Origin: Candidatus Parcubacteria bacterium
Lineage (GTDB): Bacteria; Patescibacteriota; Minisyncoccia; JACPXH01
Direction of reading: 5' to 3'
Assembly: GCA_016196625.1 (NCBI GenBank)
Contig: JACPXH010000007.1
Coordinates: 18,631-82,630 of the forward strand
DNA length: 64,000 bases
Shown: piece after piece, positions 1-36,822 of the stretch
Layout: every line of letters begins with the position of its first letter
Numbering within the stretch: the first letter of the stretch is position 1
The notes under the pieces: model-generated
What the model saw: only the letters and a program-made list of their open reading frames with translations
Told to the model about the DNA's origin: nothing
Databases searched by the model: none
Program-made: the position numbers and the translations under genes

Positions 1-2218
1 GGTGGAATTTTTACGGGAGCGCGAGGACGTCTATGATCTGACCATTGATGGTACTCACAACTTCGCGTTAGCTGCCGGAATCTTCGTGCACAATTCGATA
101 GATGGCGATAGTCAGGCCGCGATGCGTTACACGGAGGCAAAATTGACGCCCCTGGCCGCCGAGATGCTCGCAGACATCGACCGCGATACCGTTGATTTCG
201 TGGACAATTACGACGGCACGCGCCAGGAACCCACGGTGCTGCCCGCCAAGGTGCCGCAGCTGTTGCTCAACGGCACGGTCGGGATTGCGGTGGGTATGGC
301 CACGAACATCCCGCCGCATAACTTGGGCGAGGTTGTTGACGCGCTCACGTACCTAACCCATCACCGCTCGGCCTCGGTCGAAGAGCTGCTAAAGTTCGTC
401 AAGGGGCCGGATTTTCCGACCGGCGGAGCCATCTATTCGGTTAAAGACATCGCTGCCGCCTATGGCACCGGTCGGGGAGCCATCATCACGCGGGGGCTCG
501 CCGAGATTGTGGAAGGCAAGGGCAACACCCAACAGATTATCATCAACTCGATTCCATTTCAGGTGAACAAAGCCACACTGATTGAGCATTTGGCCGAGCT
601 CGTGCAGGAAAAGAAAATCGAGGGCATCAGGGACATCCGCGATGAATCTGATAAAGATGGTTTGCGGGTGGCGATTGATCTCAAAGCCGACGCCTTCCCC
701 CAGAAGGTGTTGAACAGCCTCTACAAATACACCGATCTGCAAAAGACTTTTCACCTGAACATGTTGGCACTCGTGGACATCGTGCAGCCGCAGGTGCTTT
801 CGCTCAAGGGGATGTTGGAGGAGTATTTGAAGCATCGCGAGGTCATCGTGCGCCGGCGTGCCGAGTTTGATCTGGCCCGGGCGCGCGAACGGGCGCATAT
901 CCTTGAAGGTCTGGTCAAAGCGCTCGATCAGATTGATGCGGTCATCAAAACCATCCGCCAGTCGCGCGATCGCGAAAGCGCGCATCAGGCCCTCAAGTCC
1001 AAGTTCGGCTTCACGGATCTGCAGGCTTCAGCCATTCTCGACATGCGGCTTCAGACCTTGGCGGGTCTCGAGCAGGAGAAGGTGCGCGAGGAGTTGAGTG
1101 CGAAGCGCAAGCTTATGGGTGAGCTCACGCTTTTGCTTGGCGATCCCAAACGGATTTTGGACGTTATCAGAGACGAGCTTGCGCAAGTCAAGGCGAAATA
1201 CGGCGACGAGCGCAAAACCAAGGTGGTGGCGCACGCGCCCGGCGAAATCAAGGAGGAAGATTTGGTGCCGGAGGGGGAATCGCTCGTCATTTTGACTCGG
1301 GGCGGATCAGTCAAGCGAATGAACCCGGCTGCGTACCGCACGCAAAAGCGAGGCGGCAAGGGCGTGGTTGGCGTGGTGCCCAAAGAAGAAGATGTGGTGA
1401 TGCACGCCGTCTCGGCCCACACGCACTCGAACCTGCTCTTTTTCACGAACACCGGTAAGGTCTTTCAGACCAAGACCTACGAGATTCCCGAGGTCTCCCG
1501 CCAGAGCCGGGGCAAAGCCATTGAAAACTTCTTAGCACTCGGCCCCGGTGAAGCGGTAACGGCTATTTTGCCCTACCGGCTGCGCAAGAACGAGCCGATC
1601 GGCGCAAAATTCTTCGTGATGGGCACGGCCAGTGGTATAATCAAGAAAACCGCGATTGAGGAATTTTTGCAGGTGCGCCGCTCCGGACTCATTGCGATCA
1701 AACTCGGCCGAGGCGACACGCTGCGCTGGGTGCGGGCATCGGGCGGCGGGGATGAAGTTATGCTGGTGACTAAAAACGGGCAGGCCATCCGTTTTTCCGA
1801 GCGTGATGTCCGCGCCATGGGGCGCCCCGCCGCAGGCGTTACCGGCATTCGGCTTCGCAGCACCGACGAGGTCGTCGGCATGGAAGTGATTGCCAAGAAA
1901 GCGGAAGCGCCGATGGGTGAGGCGGTTTTGGTGGTAACGGAAAACGGCTACGGTAAGCGCACGTACCTCAAGGAGTATAAAAAGCAAAAGCGGGCCGGCG
2001 TGGGCGTGAAAACGGCTAAAGTAACCAAGAAGACCGGAGCACTCGTGGTGGCTGCCGTGCCGGCGCCCGAAGCAGGCGAGGTGATCGCCCTTTCGGCCAA
2101 AGGTCAGGTGATTCGCACCCCGGTTGAGAAAATTTCGATTTTGGGCCGGGCTACCCAAGGGGTGCGTCTCATGAAAGTGGAGGCCGGGGATCGGGTCGCG
2201 GCAGCCACCGTTTTCTAA
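1..2218 (+). CDS. gyrA: DNA gyrase subunit A, 5'-truncated by window edge; first ~31 codons are the C-terminal end of an intein
   Basis: ORF 2..2218; extein motifs [17 protein letters not shown] (catalytic Tyr), [15 protein letters not shown], long C-terminal repeat domain; TAA stop 2216-2218. Confidence 0.93.
2..94 (+). other. intein C-terminal splicing region (blocks F/G) inside gyrA; extein resumes at Ser codon 95-97
   Basis: [24 protein letters not shown] followed by S+1, canonical VYDLT..HNF..G..VHN intein terminus, immediately followed by conserved GyrA extein [12 protein letters not shown]. Confidence 0.8.
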
Positions 2219-2484: not shown

Positions 2485-3036
2485 ATGAAAACTAAGACTA
2501 CCGCAGGCGCGCGCGCGTTTTTAGACCCCACGAGACTGCTTGAAGCAGTCGGTCTCAAGCTCGGCATGGAGGTGGCTGATTTTGGGTGCGGGGCCGGGCA
2601 CTTTGCCATCCCCTTGGCGCGGTTCGTGGGAGACCGTGGCGTGGTGCACGCGCTTGATGTCCGCTCGGAGATGTTGGAAGCCGTGGTCGGCCGGGCCAAA
2701 CTCGAGCGGCTCTACAACGTTCAGACCGAACGCGTTGATTTGGAGGCCGAGCGCGGCTCAAAGCTTAGGGACGGATCGCAAGATATGGTGGTGGCGGCCA
2801 ACATTCTCTTTCAGGTGCGCGACCAACGCGCCATCATCGGTGAGGCGTATCGCATCCTGAAGCCGGAGGGACGGTTTGTCGCGGTCGAATGGCACAGCGA
2901 AAGGATGTTTGGCCCCGCCTTCGCGCTCCGCCCCACTCCGGTTGACGTCAAAGCTCTCGCCGCCGAGGTGGGGTTTAAACTGGAGCATACGCTTGAAGCC
3001 GGCTCATTCCACTTTGCGATTGTGTTTAGAAAGTGA
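2485..3036 (+). CDS. class I SAM-dependent methyltransferase
   Basis: motif I VADFGCGAGHFAIPLA, acidic post-I DVRSE, ILKPEGRFV motif; 183 aa. Confidence 0.7.
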   Translation: MKTKTTAGARAFLDPTRLLEAVGLKLGMEVADFGCGAGHFAIPLARFVGDRGVVHALDVRSEMLEAVVGRAKLERLYNVQTERVDLEAERGSKLRDGSQDMVVAANILFQVRDQRAIIGEAYRILKPEGRFVAVEWHSERMFGPAFALRPTPVDVKALAAEVGFKLEHTLEAGSFHFAIVFRK

Positions 3037-6617: not shown

Positions 6618-8165
6618 TTACGCCGACTTCCGGTGGAAGACGGCGTTGCTCACCATATCGCTCAGAAAACTTATGCCTAACTCCATGAGCGGATACACGC
6701 GCCAGAACTGCCGTGAGGTGAGGGGGGTCTCTCCTGCCGTCGGGGTAGCGCCCGGCTGGCCGCCGGTCTGCTTACCCTGTTTGATCGCGGCGACGGTTTC
6801 GCCCAACGAGGCGCGGCCTTCACGGATATCCACCTCGCCTACGCCGTATTTCCGAGTAATCGATTGCTTCGCACGTCGCCATGAGCGGCGCGCGTCGTCG
6901 CGGAACACCGCGAAGAAGCAGACGATCATCACGATGATGGAAGCCCAGAATCCGCGCCAGTACCACTTCACGAAACCAGAAACCATTTTCGGTTGTGGCC
7001 GCTGGACCTTGATCCCCTCCCGGTCAAGCTCCGCATCGGTCTTGAACTTTCCGAAACGGTACTCATTCCGGTACCGCTGGGCGATTTCGCTCGGCGGCGC
7101 GGTCAGCTTAACCTCCCATGAGGAAGGGTTGAAGCCGACCATCGTAAGCCCGACCACGAGGAGGATCACGTTGAGGATTCCTAATACGTAGAAGGGTTTA
7201 TTGCTGACATCCCGGACGGGGCCGTCGAGAGACAGTCGATGGTCCTTCGACGTTCCGCGGAGGAACAGGTGGACCCCCCGACTTTTCTCGGCGAAATCCA
7301 TCTTGAACTCAACGATGCCGTCGGCATCGGTTCGCCGAATGGGCGGATCAATGCCGGCGCCAACGATCTCTACCTGCCAGTCCGGCACCGGCTGTTTGGC
7401 AGCGTCGAAGACGGCAACGCGAATGGTTTGTTTCCCATCTTCGCCGCTGACCTTAATCTCCCAGTCGTCCGCCCGGCGTATCTGGCTGGCCTGGTCCAAC
7501 TCTTGCTCGATCTGCGCGAGCTCACGCCGAAGCTTCGCCTCGGCCACCTGCTTTTCGAGCGAACTCGGCTGTGCCCCGAGTTTCTCGAGGTCAGCCGTGA
7601 TGCGTGCGAGCTCGAGCTTGAGCCGCGCTTCCGTGACATTCCTTTCGGTATCGCTCGGCGTTGCGCCAAGCTTCTTGAGTTCGGCGTCAATGCGAGCAAG
7701 CTCAAGCCGGAGGCGCGCGTCTACGAGTTTCTTCTCGTTCGAATCGGGCCGCTGGCGGAGCCTCGCAAGTTCCGCAGCAACCTTCGTCCGTTCGAGTTTG
7801 AGTTTGTCGTGCTCGAGCGAAACTTCCTCGGCCGATTTCTGTTTCGGTAGCTCGGGGACCATAAGAAGTCGTTCTGTCCGCTGGCCTCCGATTGCCACCT
7901 CGGCGAGGTAGTGGTGACCCGGACCTAGGCCGGTGATGGCTTTGGTGGCATAGCGATCTTGAACCGGTACTGCCCGGCCGAACCGTTCGCCATCCATATA
8001 GAAGATTGCCTCGGGGATTTCCCCCTCCCAGTCGCCACGCGCAAACGCGCGTAGCGTCGTGGAGTAGGTGTCATCCGCCGCGAGGGCAAGGGGTGTGTTG
8101 GTAATCTCTACCGACGGTCGCTGACGCCGTCGCTCCCTTCTGTCTCTTCCTTCATCTGCCATCAC
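6618..8165 (-). CDS. hypothetical membrane-anchored protein with tandem 23-aa coiled-coil repeats and a carboxypeptidase-regulatory-like beta domain
   Basis: 515-aa ORF; repeats KLELARI(D/T)A(E/D)L(K/E)KLGA(T/Q)PS... x3-4; two TM segments near C-terminus. Confidence 0.5.
   Translation of the reverse strand: MMADEGRDRRERRRQRPSVEITNTPLALAADDTYSTTLRAFARGDWEGEIPEAIFYMDGERFGRAVPVQDRYATKAITGLGPGHHYLAEVAIGGQRTERLLMVPELPKQKSAEEVSLEHDKLKLERTKVAAELARLRQRPDSNEKKLVDARLRLELARIDAELKKLGATPSDTERNVTEARLKLELARITADLEKLGAQPSSLEKQVAEAKLRRELAQIEQELDQASQIRRADDWEIKVSGEDGKQTIRVAVFDAAKQPVPDWQVEIVGAGIDPPIRRTDADGIVEFKMDFAEKSRGVHLFLRGTSKDHRLSLDGPVRDVSNKPFYVLGILNVILLVVGLTMVGFNPSSWEVKLTAPPSEIAQRYRNEYRFGKFKTDAELDREGIKVQRPQPKMVSGFVKWYWRGFWASIIVMIVCFFAVFRDDARRSWRRAKQSITRKYGVGEVDIREGRASLGETVAAIKQGKQTGGQPGATPTAGETPLTSRQFWRVYPLMELGISFLSDMVSNAVFHRKSA
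7540..7800. repeat. intragenic tandem ~69-bp repeats encoding the coiled-coil units of the 6618-8165 protein
   Basis: repeated gcgagctcgagcttgagccgcgc / gcgagcaagctcaagccggaggcgcgc units seen directly. Confidence 0.5.
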
Positions 8166-23364: not shown

Positions 23365-23736
23365 GTGAGAGCGACCGCGAAGTATCCGACAAGGAGAAAC
23401 GAGCTCCTCACGAGTGCTCTTTTCCCAGACAGGAGCTACCCCGAAGAATTTGCTCGGGCTGTTACGGCAGAGTTACCCGATTGGGAGGACATCCACTTGG
23501 CTTTGAGCGAATCGGACTTTATGGTCGGCGCGCTGCTGGGCATTTTTGGGAGAGGGCACTTGGGATCCCCAGAGCAGATAGTCGCCGATTTCGCAGGAGG
23601 CAGGGCTCACGACGTGAGGGCGAGAGCCGAGCGGGTCATCCGTTGTCGCCGGCTCTTTGAACAGTGGTTGGCCATCACGGATTCTTGGAGGGGCCAGCCG
23701 TCTATCGAGCGTAAGATGACGCCCGTCCTTGCGTAG
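23365..23736 (+). CDS. hypothetical protein (124 aa from GTG with strong SD)
   Basis: agaggagg SD before GTG 23365; no recognisable domain. Confidence 0.4.
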   Translation: MRATAKYPTRRNELLTSALFPDRSYPEEFARAVTAELPDWEDIHLALSESDFMVGALLGIFGRGHLGSPEQIVADFAGGRAHDVRARAERVIRCRRLFEQWLAITDSWRGQPSIERKMTPVLA

Positions 23737-23815
23737 GGAGGTATCAGGTCTCGCCCCACGGGGCGAGGCCTCTTGTTTTTGGCCCACTTTGCGCGCTACG
23801 GTACATACGCGTTCT

Positions 23816-25390
23816 ATGACCGAAAGCCGCCATTATTTGCGCGTCGGCCGCGCCACTGATCTGGTTGATTCGTCCGAGCGGCACCTCTACCGGGCACTCG
23901 AGATCTTCCCGGGCGCTTTGGCGTGGGTGACGCTTGTTTTTGTCGTCATCGGCTCGGCGTTTTTCCCGGTGGCGATTGCCCTTTTTATTATTGCTTTTGA
24001 CGTCTATTGGCTGCTTAAAACAGTTTATTTGTCGCTACACCTGCGGGCCGCGTACCGTCGTTTACGTGTCAACTTGGCCACTGACTGGCGGCAAAAGCTC
24101 GAAGCGTTGCCGGCGCATGCATACACGCTACCGATTGAGTCATGGCGTCAGCTCGACCATTTGGTGATTTTGCCAATGGTGGACGAAGGGTTGGAAGTGG
24201 TGCGGCCGACCATGCAGATGCTCGCCGCCTCGCATTACCCCTTGGAGCAACTGATGGTGGTATTGGCCATTGAAGCGCGGGTAGGAGAGTCCGCTCGGCA
24301 GGTGGCCCAGACGATCGAAGCAGAATTCGGAGCGCTTTTCGGCGCGTTTCTCGTTACCGTCCACCCCGATGGACTTGGCGGAGAGATTCGCGGCAAAGGC
24401 TCGAACGAGACGTGGGCGGCCCGGGAGGTGAAAGAGAAGATTGTTGATCCGCGCCGCATTCCCTACGAACACATCATCGCTTCGGTCTTTGATGTTGATA
24501 CCGTGGTTCGGCCGGATTTTTTCGCGTGCCTCACGTACCAGTACCTAACCACCCCGAACCCCACCCGCAAGAGCTTTCAACCTGTTCCATTTTATTCAAA
24601 CAACATCTGGCAGGCGCCGGCACTCGCTCGGGTGGTCGCGCTCTCGGCCACGTTCTGGCACATGATGCAACAAGAGCGGCCCGAGCGACAGACCACTTTT
24701 TCTTCGCACGCCATGTCCTTTGCCCCGCTTGTCGAGATCGGTTTCTGGCAGACCAACGTGGTCTCCGAGGACTCGCGGATTTTCTGGCAGTGCTATCTTC
24801 ACCTTGACGGCGATTGGCGGGTGGTCCCCCTGTACTATCCAGTTGAAATGGATGCGAACCTCGCTCCAACCTTCTGGCAGACGATGGCCAATGTATATAA
24901 GCAGCAGCGCCGGTGGGGATACGGGGTTGAAAACGTGCCCTACTTTCTCTACGGGTTTTTGAAAAACAAGGCGGTTCCCTTTCGGAAAAAACTTCGGTTC
25001 GGGTTCATGGTGATTGAGGGCTTCCACGCCTGGGCCACCAATGCGCTCATTATCTTTCTTTTGGGGTGGTTGCCGTTAGTTTTGGGCGGACGGCTGTTTA
25101 ACGTAACCGTGCTCTCGGCCAACCTGCCGGTGGTAACGCGCAACCTCATGACGCTGTCCATGATCGGGTTGGTGTCATCAGCCGTGCTTTCACTCAACTT
25201 GCTTCCGCCGAGGCCCCCGGAATACGGACGATTCCGATATCTGTGGATGGTGCTCCAGTGGCTATTCATGCCGTTGACTATCATCGTCTTTGGCGCGCTC
25301 CCCGGTTTGGAAGCTCAGACGCGGTTGATGCTGGGTCGCTACATGGGGTTTTGGGTCACGCCTAAGGTGCGCAGGTCCGCAGCAGCGTGA
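23816..25390 (+). CDS. processive family-2 glycosyltransferase (cellulose-synthase-like, QxxRW)
   Basis: multi-TM, DxD-containing GT-A core, YKQQRRWGYG (QxxRW) motif. Confidence 0.7.
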   Translation: MTESRHYLRVGRATDLVDSSERHLYRALEIFPGALAWVTLVFVVIGSAFFPVAIALFIIAFDVYWLLKTVYLSLHLRAAYRRLRVNLATDWRQKLEALPAHAYTLPIESWRQLDHLVILPMVDEGLEVVRPTMQMLAASHYPLEQLMVVLAIEARVGESARQVAQTIEAEFGALFGAFLVTVHPDGLGGEIRGKGSNETWAAREVKEKIVDPRRIPYEHIIASVFDVDTVVRPDFFACLTYQYLTTPNPTRKSFQPVPFYSNNIWQAPALARVVALSATFWHMMQQERPERQTTFSSHAMSFAPLVEIGFWQTNVVSEDSRIFWQCYLHLDGDWRVVPLYYPVEMDANLAPTFWQTMANVYKQQRRWGYGVENVPYFLYGFLKNKAVPFRKKLRFGFMVIEGFHAWATNALIIFLLGWLPLVLGGRLFNVTVLSANLPVVTRNLMTLSMIGLVSSAVLSLNLLPPRPPEYGRFRYLWMVLQWLFMPLTIIVFGALPGLEAQTRLMLGRYMGFWVTPKVRRSAAA

Positions 25391-31610: not shown

Positions 31611-32066
31611 TTATTTTGTTTTTCTTTGACGACGCAACTTGCTCCTGAATCTCAGCAAATATCCATTTGCCTCCTTCGTAATAAAACTCTTTGTATCGTC
31701 CCCCTTATTAAAAAGACTCAATGCCTCTTTGAAAGAAAGCCAAGCAAACCCAGCGCCTTCATCGAATCTGAATTCTCTAGTTTTATATTTTGGATAAATG
31801 ATATAATGCATCTTCTCATTTTTATTGTGCGCTAAAACTTTGATGCATTTTTGTTCGACTGATACGCCAAGCTCTTCGTACAACTCACGTTCAAGCGCAT
31901 GGTTTGGATCATCTAAGTCTGCCGACTCGAGGGAGCCACCAAAATAGTCCCACTTATTTGGACTTGATATATCTCGTTTATCATCGCGCTTGTGGACTAA
32001 AACCAGTTTCTTATTTGGATCATAGAGGAAAAATCCAACCCGTGTGATTTTTTGCTTTCTTGGCAT
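31611..32066 (-). CDS. NUDIX hydrolase
   Basis: Nudix box GGSLESADLDDPNHALERELYEELGV. Confidence 0.75.
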   Translation of the reverse strand: MPRKQKITRVGFFLYDPNKKLVLVHKRDDKRDISSPNKWDYFGGSLESADLDDPNHALERELYEELGVSVEQKCIKVLAHNKNEKMHYIIYPKYKTREFRFDEGAGFAWLSFKEALSLFNKGDDTKSFITKEANGYLLRFRSKLRRQRKTK

Positions 32067-32483
32067 ATATCAAAGTATTATACGCTGAATTCAAAACGGC
32101 TTGAAATTTCCCCGAAAAACGGCTGGCGAGCCCGCGTATTTGTCCCTCGTAGCCCGAAGGGCGAAGTGGGAGCGGGCGAGCCAATGACTTCATTTCCTAA
32201 CTGGCGGTGTCTGTTTGAAAATATCCGAACGGAACTCTCTGGGCCCCGCCTGCGTTGAAACTTCGGCGGGCAGGTCGGCGGGCGGCCCCGCAACTATCTC
32301 GCTTCGCTCGAAGTGCGGGGTAAAAATTCCCCCCGACCCCCTGGAGTTTATCCCGCATAATCCCGAAGGGATTTGTGCGGGGCCCGCCTCGCCTTGCCTG
32401 CCCGACCGATAGGCGGGAACCGGAGCGGAAAGCATGCCCCGTAGTGAACGCGGAGCGTTCTACTACTGGGGGCGATTTCAAGT

Positions 32484-32819
32484 CTACATCGGCAACGGCA
32501 TTGATTCGTGCACTTCGATTTCACATCCACTTGACCACTCAAGATGGGGGTGTCCCTTAAGCATCGCTACGGCGTCTTTCATACTTTCAGCTTGCAGAAT
32601 TGAGTAGCCAACAACATCTTTGTCGCTCGGAGAGGTTCCGTCTTTGGTAACTTTTTGTCCATTAGCCAAAGGAGTTCCCATGTCCACAAGCCCACTACCA
32701 CATTTTTTAGCCCATGCCATCCACGGTTCCATCCCCTTTTTCATGTCTTCTGGGCTTACGTCTTTCATACCCGCCATTGCACTTTTTGACATGTGATAAA
32801 CTACAATAAATTTTTTCAT
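32484..32819 (-). CDS. YciI-like/DGPF-domain small protein (tentative)
   Basis: 111-aa ORF, loose resemblance to YciI-like alpha+beta barrel proteins. Confidence 0.3.
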   Translation of the reverse strand: MKKFIVVYHMSKSAMAGMKDVSPEDMKKGMEPWMAWAKKCGSGLVDMGTPLANGQKVTKDGTSPSDKDVVGYSILQAESMKDAVAMLKGHPHLEWSSGCEIEVHESMPLPM

Positions 32820-32917
32820 AGTCGTTGCATTTTTAATGATTTATTACTCGACCTTGATGGTATTGTACGCTAAGGAAAGAATGATCTCAAGTTTTTCTTT
32901 GGCGGCAATGCTGGAGA

Positions 32918-33208
32918 TTACAATCTGAAATAGAAAACAGGAGCACATGCCGCAAGTATGGCAACAATTTGAATTGCGAGGACCAAGAGCACTTGCTTTG
33001 GTCTCTGCGGCAACCACCTAATTGCGAAAAACGACACCATCAGTACTTCTAGAACTAGCCAAATTTGAAATAGATGTGCGCCCGTTCCTTCATCTGGCTG
33101 ACGGACGGGAACGCCGGATATCGCAATATAAATCAGCATTGTAGCCAAAACAATCAACGACATTGCTATTGGAATCCAAGCACTAGGCTTTTTTATTGTT
33201 GAATTCAT
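32918..33208 (-). CDS. small membrane protein (3 TM)
   Basis: 96-aa hydrophobic ORF; preceded by island repeat tctcaagtttttctttggcgg. Confidence 0.35.
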   Translation of the reverse strand: MNSTIKKPSAWIPIAMSLIVLATMLIYIAISGVPVRQPDEGTGAHLFQIWLVLEVLMVSFFAIRWLPQRPKQVLLVLAIQIVAILAACAPVFYFRL

Positions 33209-33394
33209 GGGCTTATCTCAAGTTTTTCTTTGGCGGAATACAAATTTGAGCGTGCGGAGTGCTCATGATTAGCTCTTTATAAAAAGAGGATGTGTGGTTC
33301 TATCGGTTGTGTTGCTCCAAGTCAGGATTTTTTCGGTAAAGAAAATATTGTACTAGAGTGATTCCCCACATGATAATGCCGACAGAAAAAGATA

Positions 33395-33592
33395 TTAGAG
33401 GTAGAAAGGCGTGGGTAGCATAAAAAAATGCAATTTGAGAAGCGTAAAAACATAGGCAATCAATATTGCCGTTACCGGTTGCCCGGATCTCTTTTCGCGA
33501 TAATTTTTTGCTATCTGGGCTGGTATGCCAACCAACACTAGGGTGAGTGCAAAAACGCTTACTAAAATGCTAAGAAAAAATATTAAGTCCAC
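33395..33592 (-). CDS. small membrane protein (65 aa)
   Basis: two TM helices; AT-rich. Confidence 0.25.
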   Translation of the reverse strand: MDLIFFLSILVSVFALTLVLVGIPAQIAKNYREKRSGQPVTAILIAYVFTLLKLHFFMLPTPFYL

Positions 33593-33783
33593 GATTATTT
33601 ACAGAATTATGGAAAAAATGTTTCTTTTGCCTTTATGGTTCGATAAGCTCACCACAGGTTGATACATCTTCTTCGTTTTCCTTGTCCGCCAAAGCCTTGG
33701 CGACGGCGGAGCCAAAAAATCCCTTTCAAATCCTAGCCGAGCGGCGCGTCCCGTGCCGCGAGCCAATGACTTCATTTCCCAAC

Positions 33784-33875
33784 TGGCGGTGGGCAGAGGA
33801 TTCGAACCTCTGTGGGATTTTTTAGATCCCCGCAGTTTAGCAAACTGCTGCCTTAAGCCACTCGGCCAGCCCACC
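33784..33875 (-). tRNA. tRNA-Ser (anticodon GCT), long variable arm, CCA encoded
   Basis: acceptor GGTGGGC/GCCCACC, D-arm TGGCCGAGTGG, anticodon stem GCAGT/ACTGC loop TTGCTAA, variable arm GGGGATCTAAAAAATCCCAC, T-loop TTCGAAT. Confidence 0.88.
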
Positions 33876-34004
33876 ATTTTAAATTTCTCGGCAAAGCCTA
33901 ATCAAGTCGTGGTCTCGTGTCTTCCCTGGCGACTTTTTGTCGCCCGTCAAAAGCTGCGCACGCTCGCTTTTGACCCACTCAGCCACGCCTCCTCCTTGTA
34001 TCCC

Positions 34005-34108
34005 TAACTGGCGGTGTATATTGAAAATAGCTCGAACGGAATTCTGTCCTCGCCCGCCTGCGGCGGGCTCGGGTCGGGAGGGCAAAAAATCCGCGCGGCT
34101 CCGCCGCG
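34005..34108. repeat. inverted repeat IRa-left (exact partner at 34870-34968); begins with tRNA-Ser 3'-end-like aactggcggtg and degenerate T-arm
   Basis: reverse complement of 34870-34968 matches over ~99 bp with no mismatches seen. Confidence 0.7.
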
Positions 34109-34148
34109 AACATTAACAATTTCAAGTTTTTCTTTGGCGGCAATTACG

Positions 34149-34790
34149 TTATTTTGAAAATTTAAAAGAATTGATCATTTCCAGAAATATCTCATCGGGT
34201 GCGGGCGCTTCTGTATCTCTCTGTTTGACCAGAAGATAAAGCCAACTATCCCTAGTCACAAATGCATTCTCAAGGTAACTATTTTCTCCCCCGAATGAGG
34301 CGTATATAACGGGAATGTATTTTCCTTTTACGCCATCGAAGAATGGTATTAATGCTTTTTCTTCCTCAATATCCCGAGGGAATCCAAGAAACGTATTGGA
34401 ATTCAAGAAGTTAAGATTTTGTGGTGAAGCGGTGAAGCTCGGCGCAACATATAATTCGGCCCCGCAAGAAAATTCCCTTTGATGAACTGGAGTAAAGCAA
34501 ATACTGTATAAAGAATTTAGTTTTGGTTCAGGGTAAAAATAAGGCGGTGGTATGGGATTCTTATCCTTGGGAAGTGTGTGGTCTTGTTCCAGTGGTTTTA
34601 AATCACTTGGATATTTTATCTCAAATCCATATTTTTCATTTCTATATGTTTTCCAGGTAAAAGTTTTAATCTGACTCAGAGGTTCCGGTTTTAGCGGCAG
34701 AGGAACATTTCCCGATTTTTTTGCAATAAAATAGCTTGCTAACACTATAATTGCAACGATTATTATTACCCAAGTTACTTTTGTTCTCAT
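34149..34790 (-). CDS. hypothetical secreted/membrane-anchored protein bracketed by IRa pair
   Basis: MRTKVTWVIIIVAIIVLASYF signal/anchor; AT-rich; ORF-track N-terminal extension is read-through of IRa. Confidence 0.5.
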   Translation of the reverse strand: MRTKVTWVIIIVAIIVLASYFIAKKSGNVPLPLKPEPLSQIKTFTWKTYRNEKYGFEIKYPSDLKPLEQDHTLPKDKNPIPPPYFYPEPKLNSLYSICFTPVHQREFSCGAELYVAPSFTASPQNLNFLNSNTFLGFPRDIEEEKALIPFFDGVKGKYIPVIYASFGGENSYLENAFVTRDSWLYLLVKQRDTEAPAPDEIFLEMINSFKFSK

Positions 34791-34869
34791 ATGATTAAAA
34801 AATTCCCCAAAAATTAAAATATGGTTCGAGCCGATTTGTTTTTCAGGTTCTTTGGCAGTTTGGGATCTT

Positions 34870-34968
34870 TGCGGCGGAGCCGCGCGGATTTTTTGCCCTC
34901 CCGACCCGAGCCCGCCGCAGGCGGGCGAGGACAGAATTCCGTTCGAGCTATTTTCAATATACACCGCA
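34870..34968. repeat. inverted repeat IRa-right
   Basis: see IRa-left. Confidence 0.7.
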
Positions 34969-35066
34969 AGTCAGGAAAACGCAAATTATGGACAGATGCC
35001 TCGCGGCGCGGGACGCGCCGCTCGGCTAGGGTTTGAAAGGGCTTTTTTGGCGAAAAGGAAAGGGAT
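34964..35066. repeat. inverted repeat IRb-left (partner 36478-36578, ~97% identical), abuts IRa-right
   Basis: caccgcaagtcaggaaaacgcaaattatggacagatgcctcgcggcgcgggacgcgccgctcggctagggtttgaaagggcttttttggcg is the reverse complement of 36478-36578. Confidence 0.7.
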
Positions 35067-35105
35067 TTATCAATCAGGGCAAAAGAATTTTTTAACTACA
35101 AAACT

Positions 35106-36656
35106 ATGAGATATATAATTTACGCGAGGAAATCCACGGAGAGTGAGGAACGACAGATATTAAGCATTGAATCTCAAATATCTGAATTGAAAGAATTTGC
35201 CGCCAAAGAAAAACTTGAAATTGTTGCCTCGCTTTGCGAAGCCCAAACTGCCAAAGAACCTGGGCGAATGAAATTCGCAGAGATGTTGTCATTTTTGGAA
35301 TCAGGAAAAGCAGACGGAATACTTTCTTGGAATCCAGATCGTCTCGCCAGAAATTCCATAGACGGAGGACAGATTATCTATCTGTTGGACACAGGAAAGA
35401 TAAAAGATTTGAAATTTCCAACGCACTGGTTTGAGAATACACCGCAAGGAAAATTCATGCTGAACATTGCCTTTGGGCAAAGCAAGTATTATGTGGACAA
35501 TTTGAGTGAGAACATCAAGCGTGGACATAGGGCAAAACTACGAAAAGGAATTTGGCCGAGCTTTGCCCCACTAGGATATACGAACAATCACAAAACGCGA
35601 GATGTTGATGTTGATTTGGAGAAAGCTCCGCTAGTCCGAAAAGGTTTTGAGCTTTACTCAACTGGTAAATATACCCTTAAGCAAATAGCTAAAATTTGGA
35701 AAGATCTCGGATTGCGGAGCTACAAAGGCAATGTTCTAGCAGTTTCCTGTGTCCAGCGAATTTTGAAAAGTACATTTTACTATGGAATTTTCGAGTTCAA
35801 TGGCGAGACGTATCAAGGTTCGCACGAGCCGTCAATCTCAAAGAAACTTTTTGATAACTGTCAGGAAATAATGAAGGATCGCGGACATATTATGACTAGA
35901 AAATCAGAGAAAACTTTTCCATTTCGCGGTTTGCTCACTTGTGGAGAATGTAAATGCGCCATTACCGCCGAAACACAAAAAGGACACAACTATTATCGTT
36001 GCACCAAGAAGCGCGAACTGTGTTCACAAAAATATGTCCGCGAAGAATTGCTCACCGAGCAAGTAAAAAGTTTTCTTCAAAAAGTTTCTTTGCCGAGCCA
36101 AGACATGGAAAAAGTTTTGCGCGAGTTGGACAAGGACGAGCAGAAAGCAAGAGAGGATAGTTTAGCTCTGGTTAGTACTTTGAAAAATGATTTAGTGGAC
36201 ATAGAAACAAGGTTAGACAAATTGCTTTCTGCTTACCTCGATAAAGTAATTACATCGGAAGAATATGCCGCGCAAAAACAAAAAATGCTCGACCAGAGAG
36301 TAGAGCTGAAAGAGAAAATTCATGAAATCGAGGATAAAGGCGTGTCTTGGCTCGAACCAGCTCGTGCGTGGATTAAATCCTTGAATCAAGCGGAGAAACT
36401 GCTTTTGTCTGGGGATAAGTCGGAAATGACAACATTTCTAAAACAAATCGGCTCGAACCATATTTTGATCGATAAATCCTTTTCTTTTTCGCCAAAAAAG
36501 CCCTTTCAAATCCTAGCCGAGCGGCGCGTTCCGCGCCGCGAGGCATCTGTCCATAATTTGCGTTTTCCTGACTTGCGGAAGCGGGAGGATTCGAACCTCC
36601 GAAGGGGACTAGCCCCCAACTGGTTTTTCCCGATTTTGTTCACGCGGAACGCGTGA
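35106..36656 (+). CDS. large serine recombinase (resolvase catalytic domain + recombinase domain + zinc ribbon); C-terminal ~40 codons likely read-through into IRb-right
   Basis: YARKSTESEERQ..SIESQ catalytic Ser motif, ILSWNPDRLARN, CGECKC..YYRC zinc ribbon, coiled-coil; AT-rich. Confidence 0.8.
   Translation: MRYIIYARKSTESEERQILSIESQISELKEFAAKEKLEIVASLCEAQTAKEPGRMKFAEMLSFLESGKADGILSWNPDRLARNSIDGGQIIYLLDTGKIKDLKFPTHWFENTPQGKFMLNIAFGQSKYYVDNLSENIKRGHRAKLRKGIWPSFAPLGYTNNHKTRDVDVDLEKAPLVRKGFELYSTGKYTLKQIAKIWKDLGLRSYKGNVLAVSCVQRILKSTFYYGIFEFNGETYQGSHEPSISKKLFDNCQEIMKDRGHIMTRKSEKTFPFRGLLTCGECKCAITAETQKGHNYYRCTKKRELCSQKYVREELLTEQVKSFLQKVSLPSQDMEKVLRELDKDEQKAREDSLALVSTLKNDLVDIETRLDKLLSAYLDKVITSEEYAAQKQKMLDQRVELKEKIHEIEDKGVSWLEPARAWIKSLNQAEKLLLSGDKSEMTTFLKQIGSNHILIDKSFSFSPKKPFQILAERRVPRREASVHNLRFPDLRKREDSNLRRGLAPNWFFPILFTRNA
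36478..36578. repeat. inverted repeat IRb-right
   Basis: see IRb-left. Confidence 0.7.
36579..36650 (-). pseudogene. tRNA 3'-half-like fragment (T-arm GGAGG-TTCGAAT-CCTCC + acceptor 3' strand, no matching 5' acceptor)
   Basis: ggaggattcgaacctcc on + strand; no complementary GGAAGCG 5' strand found. Confidence 0.4.
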
Positions 36657-36683
36657 TTACAAAATCGAGGATCCCGTCCAAAG

Positions 36684-36770
36684 CGGCGAGGGTGAGATTC
36701 GAACTCACGATACCCTTTCGGGTATACCTGTTTTCAAGACAGGTCTGTTCAACCACTCCAGCACCTCGCC
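36684..36770 (-). tRNA. tRNA-Ser (anticodon TGA), long variable arm, no encoded CCA
   Basis: acceptor GGCGAGG/CCTCGCC, anticodon stem CCTGT/ACAGG loop CTTGAAA, variable arm TATACCCGAAAGGGTATC, T-loop TTCGAAT. Confidence 0.85.
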
Positions 36771-36822
36771 GCTTTGTTCGGGACAAGACCGTTCCTTTCA
36801 ACCACTCAGGCACCCCGCCGCA

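Follow-up and report, generated by a model that had tools for sequence, protein, structure and literature searches.

A predicted class 1 intein with a putative nested HNH homing endonuclease in a patescibacterial gyrA gene, and the widespread family at its insertion site

What interrupts the gene for DNA gyrase subunit A (gyrA) at the very start of a 64,000-nucleotide stretch from a Candidatus Parcubacteria bacterium (GenBank assembly GCA_016196625.1, contig JACPXH010000007.1, positions 18,631 to 82,630 of the forward strand), and is its position the classical gyrA-a insertion site? We refer to this whole stretch as the window, and a slash within a sequence or between two residues marks a splice junction. 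A first-pass annotation, made from the letters of the window, had proposed that the window opens inside a GyrA intein that ends in His-Asn and is followed by a Ser as first residue of the C-extein (Ser+1), and that the insertion lies elsewhere than at gyrA-a. Both proposals have held. Judged from sequence, the element is very probably a canonical class 1 intein of 524 residues with a nested HNH homing endonuclease, and it is one of a very widespread family of inteins at a single gyrA site, which is Gly110/Ser111 in E. coli numbering.

Within the window, the open frame on the plus strand runs unbroken from position 2 to the normal gyrA stop, and translation of 2-2218 begins with the last 31 residues of the intein. 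Both portions of this fragment are recognised by Pfam: Intein_splicing matches its residues 4-31 (E=9e-6) in a partial match that extends to the end of the model, and DNA_topoisoIV covers residues 32-393 (E=5.9e-110), in addition to six DNA_gyraseA_C repeats, the C-terminal blades. The boundary between the two has the penultimate His, the terminal Asn and the Ser, Thr or Cys at +1 that a splice junction requires, window 89-97 reading cac aat tcg.

The remainder of the protein was identified in a sequence database. Among the members of the 90%-identity cluster of P0001, the closest intein-less match, we found P0121 (GenBank MBI3305064.1), a protein of 1339 residues from a Candidatus Parcubacteria bacterium that is encoded on a 216,792-nt contig and bears the name "intein-containing DNA gyrase subunit A". 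Since the window translation is 100% identical to its last 738 residues (602-1339), P0121 is the window's own protein. In it, an N-extein of 108 residues, which ends in GQGNFG, precedes the intein (CFTGDTK…IFVHN), and the C-extein follows. In a global alignment of P0121 with P0001 the exteins are 93% identical and the sole gap consists of the 524 residues at 109-632; the junctions read GQGNFG/C…VHN/SIDGD, and removal of the 524 residues restores colinearity. The N-terminal junction has the context …PLVLGQGNFG/CFTGDTKVQLVD in P0121, and its Cys1 (GQGNFG/CFTGDTK at the protein level) is invariant in the family. At the P0001 locus (L082, on JACQLD010000053.1) the intein-less junction DNA reads …GGGCAGGGAAATTTTGGT/TCTCTAGACGGGGAT…. 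A 183-residue methyltransferase gene with the same Pfam families follows gyrA on its 3' side both at this locus and in the window, so the two gyrA genes are orthologous.

To which residues of a well-known gyrase do these junctions correspond? The spliced sequence keeps a constant offset of +2 to E. coli GyrA chains. Together with the established position of the E. coli catalytic tyrosine, Tyr122, this offset places the junction at Gly110/Ser111. The first-pass annotation had located the insertion between GNFG and SIDGDS, eight residues ahead of the AMRY motif, and had expected the N-terminal part of the intein, and any homing endonuclease domain, to lie outside the window. These expectations are borne out in each detail: the eight intervening residues are SIDGDSQA; the N-terminal part, recovered as protein, starts at a Cys junction and shows up against an intein-less GyrA as an insertion rather than as colinear sequence; and a predicted endonuclease domain does lie there, of the HNH and not of the LAGLIDADG type. 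The features at the start of the window are the following.

2 to 94, plus strand: C-terminus of the intein, intein residues 494-524 of 524, equal to P0121 residues 602-632 (from the translation and from Pfam Intein_splicing, E=9e-6)
within 2 to 94, plus strand: splicing blocks F and G (IFVHN; from the translation)
89 to 91, plus strand: penultimate His, codon cac
92 to 94, plus strand: terminal Asn, codon aat
95 to 97, plus strand: Ser+1, the C-extein nucleophile, equal to Ser111 of E. coli GyrA, codon tcg (from the gap boundary against P0001 and the constant E. coli offset)
95 to 2218, plus strand: GyrA C-extein, 707 residues plus the stop at 2216-2218 (from Pfam, matches to the NCBIfam gyrA equivalog models, and 92.6% identity to the P0001 C-extein)
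119 to 130, plus strand: AMRY, intact in the C-extein (from the translation)
128 to 130, plus strand: codon of the catalytic Tyr (from the translation)
2485 to 3036, plus strand: methyltransferase gene, 183 residues, outside the intein, a synteny marker (from its Pfam families and its counterpart at L082)

Does the full-length element have what a splicing domain needs? On P0121, the NCBIfam model intein_Nterm reaches 38.5 bits at residues 109-188, above its cut-off of 24.5, and TIGR01443 (intein_Cterm) reaches 30.2 bits at residues 610-633, where the cut-off is 15.6; Pfam Intein_splicing covers all 524 residues of the intein (E=1.1e-19). An AlphaFold model of the intein, built from a nine-sequence alignment, has a predicted local distance difference test score (pLDDT) above 90 at intein residues 1-100 and 490-524, the two halves of the Hint domain. 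Foldseek matched these halves to solved NrdJ-1, DnaE, DnaB and RecA inteins; the best matches, those of NrdJ-1, DnaE and DnaB, have E values from 6e-6 to 1e-4 and a probability of 1.00. Conservation was gauged across 83 full-length family members and is 90% or higher at 71 positions. Of these 71, the window's intein retains 68 and departs from the other three by conservative changes (L81M, S97A and P100A). The block B TxxH motif is present as C73-T74-L-D-H77, with T74 and H77 both among the positions conserved at that level, and the retained splicing positions include C1, T74, H77, H512, H523 and N524. With the conserved positions kept in this way, splicing and endonuclease activities are both plausibly intact.

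Between the two halves of the splicing domain, intein residues ~114-191 match phage HNH endonuclease families of the PHROG collection (phrog_7545, E=3.3e-6; phrog_15471, E=1.7e-4). The AlphaFold model forms a strand-strand-helix at residues 151-190, and the HNH positions H154, H155, N163, N167, H176 and H180 are all kept. Next comes an array of ~11 helices at intein residues ~200-450 (P0121 ~308-558), in which a motif resembling W-x-D-P-x-Y-R recurs every 17-21 residues. This array matches phrog_22215, a phage family of unknown function (E=2.9e-11), and no significant Pfam family, the NUMOD models included. It probably binds DNA. The layout presumably resembles that of phage and intron-encoded HNH homing endonucleases with modular DNA-binding repeats, such as those of the I-HmuI type, in which an HNH catalytic core precedes a long alpha-helical region that binds DNA; the difference from these enzymes is that the endonuclease here is nested within an intein.

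How might such an element splice and spread? We envision that splicing would begin with an N-S acyl shift at Cys1, assisted by Thr74 and His77 of block B, and that the resulting thioester would be attacked by Ser+1 to give a branched ester. Cyclisation of Asn524, assisted by His523, would then release the intein, and an O-N shift would link Gly108 to Ser109 (numbering of the protein itself). Splicing would in this way rebuild the active-site segment GNFGSIDGD…AMRY, joined 12 residues ahead of the catalytic Tyr, so that gyrase would be made only after splicing. The endonuclease, a predicted member of the beta-beta-alpha-metal class placed between the splicing halves, would cut an intein-less gyrA at the sequence coding for GNFG/SIDGD, and repair from an intein-bearing copy would spread the element, that is, it would home.

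How does this intein relate to the classical gyrA-a inteins? The Mycobacterium xenopi (Mxe) GyrA intein sits directly after the catalytic Tyr. A homologous intein corroborates this: in P0065, another patescibacterial GyrA, an intein with a LAGLIDADG domain (PF14528) is found at AMRY/CVIADT…INHN/TETRL, and it matches the Mxe GyrA intein (PDB 1AM2) at E=4e-18. With P0065 as positive control, a PDB search with P0010, a member of the Gly110/Ser111 family, gave no match to 1AM2 at E<=1, and we therefore reject kinship with the Mxe GyrA intein. Membership of the gyrA-a site, the name GyrA-a being the one used for the M. xenopi intein (PMC5050341), is rejected as well, because the junction GNFG/…/SIDGD lies 12 residues upstream of AMRY/C. 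The NCBIfam model GyrA_w_intein scores 829.6 on P0121, against a cut-off of 1850. Moreover, two gyrA genes carry both inteins, 12 residues apart, one in Armatimonadota (L028) and one in Woesearchaeota (L071), and in both the second intein begins at the classical site, AMRY/C followed by I or V. The P0065 and 1AM2 results, the GyrA_w_intein score and the double occupancy together indicate that the two sites are distinct and that their inteins are unrelated.

The two kinds do have features in common. The mycobacterial gyrA-a inteins (Mxe, PDB 1AM2, and Mle) are likewise class 1 inteins of GyrA with Cys1 and a terminal His-Asn, and inteins at either site interrupt the stretch that surrounds the catalytic Tyr, which makes gyrase activity dependent on splicing. 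They differ in the junction and in the nested enzyme. The gyrA-a site is AMRY/C…HN/T, with Thr at +1, whereas the window's intein sits at Gly110/Ser111 with Ser at +1; full-length gyrA-a inteins carry a LAGLIDADG endonuclease (PF14528 in P0065), the window's intein a predicted HNH one.

How common is an intein at Gly110/Ser111? We scanned 185,579 species, each represented by a single genome, with patterns from the intein alignment and confirmed at least 571 intein homologs. Junctions were read by translating the flanks of the best 80 of these loci, and all 78 at which both junctions were readable have the intein at the identical gyrA site. At two of the loci, L018 and L022, the contig ends before the N-terminal junction is reached; two others, L012 and L043, are truncated matches in which the C-terminal junction was not seen. 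In full, the site reads G-(Q or H)-G-N-(F, W or M)-G/CFT…VHN/S-(I, V, L or M)-D-G-D, with deviations 3' of the Ser in four of the 78 (SIDD or SVDD in three, SGED in L056). In a protein search with GyrA itself, ~30 of the 120 best homologs carry Intein_splicing and measure 990-1250 residues, and they have G/CFT…VHN/S-(I, V, L or M)-D at this point as well.

The hosts, as named in the databases, belong to both prokaryotic domains. On the bacterial side they are Patescibacteria (Saccharibacteria, Wildermuth-, Staskawicz-, Kaiser- and Berkelbacteria), Omnitrophota, Armatimonadota, Elusimicrobiota and Chloroflexota, with Oscillochloris trichoides DG6 of the Chloroflexota (L032) as a cultured host; on the archaeal side they are Micrarchaeota, Woesearchaeota, Nanoarchaeota, Pacearchaeota, Diapherotrites, Methanoperedens and Nitrosotalea. 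The inteins fall into two main size classes, of ~390-395 and ~518-532 residues, and the window's, with 524, is in the long one. What chiefly sets a 391-residue form apart from a 524-residue form is the number of W-x-D-P-x-Y-R helices. Mini-inteins of 156-251 residues, without the HNH and repeat region, also occur (P0099, P0112, P0019 and P0071). Although its junctions (G/CFT…VHN/S) are identical to those of the family and its splicing blocks, HNH module and repeat array are homologous, the window's intein is a fairly divergent member, with 34-57% full-length identity to the family and 45-50% to the other long forms. Its nearest sampled relative is a mini-intein, P0019, which is 57% identical overall and shares 29 of the last 31 residues.

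Does the family move? The intein is patchily distributed: P0001, for all the similarity of its exteins, has none, and the same is true of all four closest GyrA orthologs (P0001 to P0004, Candidatus Parcubacteria, 815 residues, 79-90% identical over the window fragment). In several pairs of a bacterial and an archaeal locus the inteins resemble each other more than their hosts' gyrases do. For example, between L060 (Staskawiczbacteria) and L054 (Nanoarchaeota) the intein is 67% and the adjacent 300 GyrA residues 48% identical; between L033 (Anaerolineae) and L039 (Methanoperedenaceae) the corresponding values are 69% and 57%. This excess of identity in the intein suggests that inteins have been transferred between domains. 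Patchiness, an identity excess across domains and decayed mini-inteins would together be the pattern expected of a homing cycle.

A comparison of nucleotides next to the insertion adds a minor observation. When window 95-184 is set against L082 3325-3414, 20 of the 30 nucleotides next to the junction are identical, and identity is 78% over the 90 nucleotides, as compared with 88% across the C-extein. This dip may mark a tract of co-conversion or reflect an altered target site. C-extein positions 1621-1800 are as divergent from L082 as the junction-side 90 nucleotides, however, and with a distant stretch equally low the dip is no evidence on its own.

Could the splicing domain be active and the HNH endonuclease dead, so that the element is a fixed, vertically inherited passenger without active homing? 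We consider this possible but doubtful. Pfam HNH_3 gives the window's copy 17 bits, under its cut-off of 24.8, which is exceeded in a relative (P0088, 26.8); the family members without an endonuclease show that decay occurs; and a near-identical donor was not found, the best sampled match being the 57% mini-intein. Against a dead enzyme stands the retention of all six HNH positions and of the Trp and Tyr residues of the repeat array, together with a length that fits the long size class of many other lineages, and the existence of an intein-less ortholog with exteins as similar as those of P0001 argues for a recent gain or loss. Some of these results also count against our preferred reading of a complete, homing-competent class 1 intein, namely the low HNH_3 score and the distance to the best sampled intein, with which no recent donor is visible, and there are others that do so. 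The repeat region is modelled at low to medium confidence, with a pLDDT of 42-56 at residues 250-330. Exact-match scans with the first bases of the window gave no match in genome contigs or metagenome contigs, and the evidence for the N-terminal junction is the deposited protein, since intein residues 1-493 were read as protein and not as DNA. Finally, splicing itself, endonuclease activity and homing are things that we infer.

The other explanations fare worse. That the insertion might be kept in the mature GyrA, as a degenerate Hint domain or a bacterial intein-like domain that no longer splices, or that the gene might be a pseudogene, is most improbable, given that all splicing residues are intact, that the frame is open to a normal stop, and that the insertion divides the very stretch of an essential enzyme which leads into its active site. 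An assembly chimera, in which an intein fragment was fused to gyrA, would be conceivable in principle, the source being a metagenome-assembled genome. Yet the junction keeps the reading frame and is precise to the residue, it is found again in 78 genomes that were assembled independently, and an independent Logan assembly spans the adjacent locus (a 1.8-kb contig that contains the neighbouring methyltransferase and stops short of the upstream region); we regard a chimera as close to inconceivable. Equally improbable as a non-splicing insertion is a rare or lineage-specific new gyrA site. The first-pass annotation had implied such rarity, and the literature that we searched does name only the mycobacterial gyrA-a site, but on this point the annotation has to be corrected: rarity is refuted by the at least 571 species-level homologs, in several bacterial and archaeal phyla, by the uniform junctions of the 78 readable loci, by the share of inteins among the best GyrA homologs, and by the name that NCBI already gives to MBI3305064.1. 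A survey of 2015 (PMC4760082) likewise records 50 inteins of GyrA, from Actinobacteria, Aquificae, Chloroflexi and Proteobacteria, and gives no sites in its text.

What, then, is new here? This instance is already known, as the protein has been deposited and is named as intein-containing by NCBI. The feature is ordinary, because uncultivated bacteria and archaea commonly have the insertion and GenBank already annotates it; with a labelled entry and hundreds of genomes that share the insertion, its discovery value is small. The novelty that is left lies in the family as a whole, which appears to be little described and is of interest for its apparent spread across domains and its variable repeat array. 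Our literature search returned nothing that describes the Gly110/Ser111 site, names gyrA alleles other than gyrA-a, or deals with inteins in the candidate phyla radiation, and no published name for the Gly110/Ser111 GyrA intein family; one study removed 23 archaeal GyrA sequences that contain inteins and gave no description of them (PMC9348778). As a tentative speculation, in which we place limited trust, the HNH intein at Gly110/Ser111, and not the textbook mycobacterial gyrA-a intein, may dominate GyrA inteins in nature and move between the ultra-small bacteria of the candidate phyla radiation and archaea of the DPANN or Methanoperedens groups, and the W-x-D-P-x-Y-R array, with its variable copy number, may be an undescribed modular domain for DNA recognition.

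Several consequences follow for those who work with gyrase or with inteins. Around the catalytic Tyr of GyrA, inteins occupy at least two independent sites, which are separated by 12 residues. The intein at Gly110/Ser111 has to be excised in annotation pipelines and for gyrase phylogenies. Intein engineers could make use of the family, with its natural Gly-1/Ser+1 junction and its natural mini-inteins of 156-191 residues, and it could interest studies of gene flow between bacteria of the candidate phyla radiation and DPANN archaea.

Elsewhere in the window, Pfam detected no further inteins in the ten largest of the remaining open reading frames (ORFs). Two large ORFs, at 6618-8165 on the minus strand (515 residues) and 23729-25390 on the plus strand (553 residues), have no Pfam match at E<=1e-5. 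At window 32000-36800 lies an island of low G+C content (0.42-0.47, against ~0.58 elsewhere) with the following features.

32176 to 32209 and 33758 to 33791: direct repeats, 97% identical, overlapping the 3' end of tRNA-Ser(gct)
33784 to 33875: tRNA-Ser(gct)
33983 to 34016: a weaker copy of the direct repeat
35106 to 36656, plus strand: ORF of a large serine recombinase, in the low-GC island and adjoining tRNA-Ser(tga)
36683 to 36770: tRNA-Ser(tga)

This island probably represents one or two mobile elements that have integrated at tRNA-Ser.

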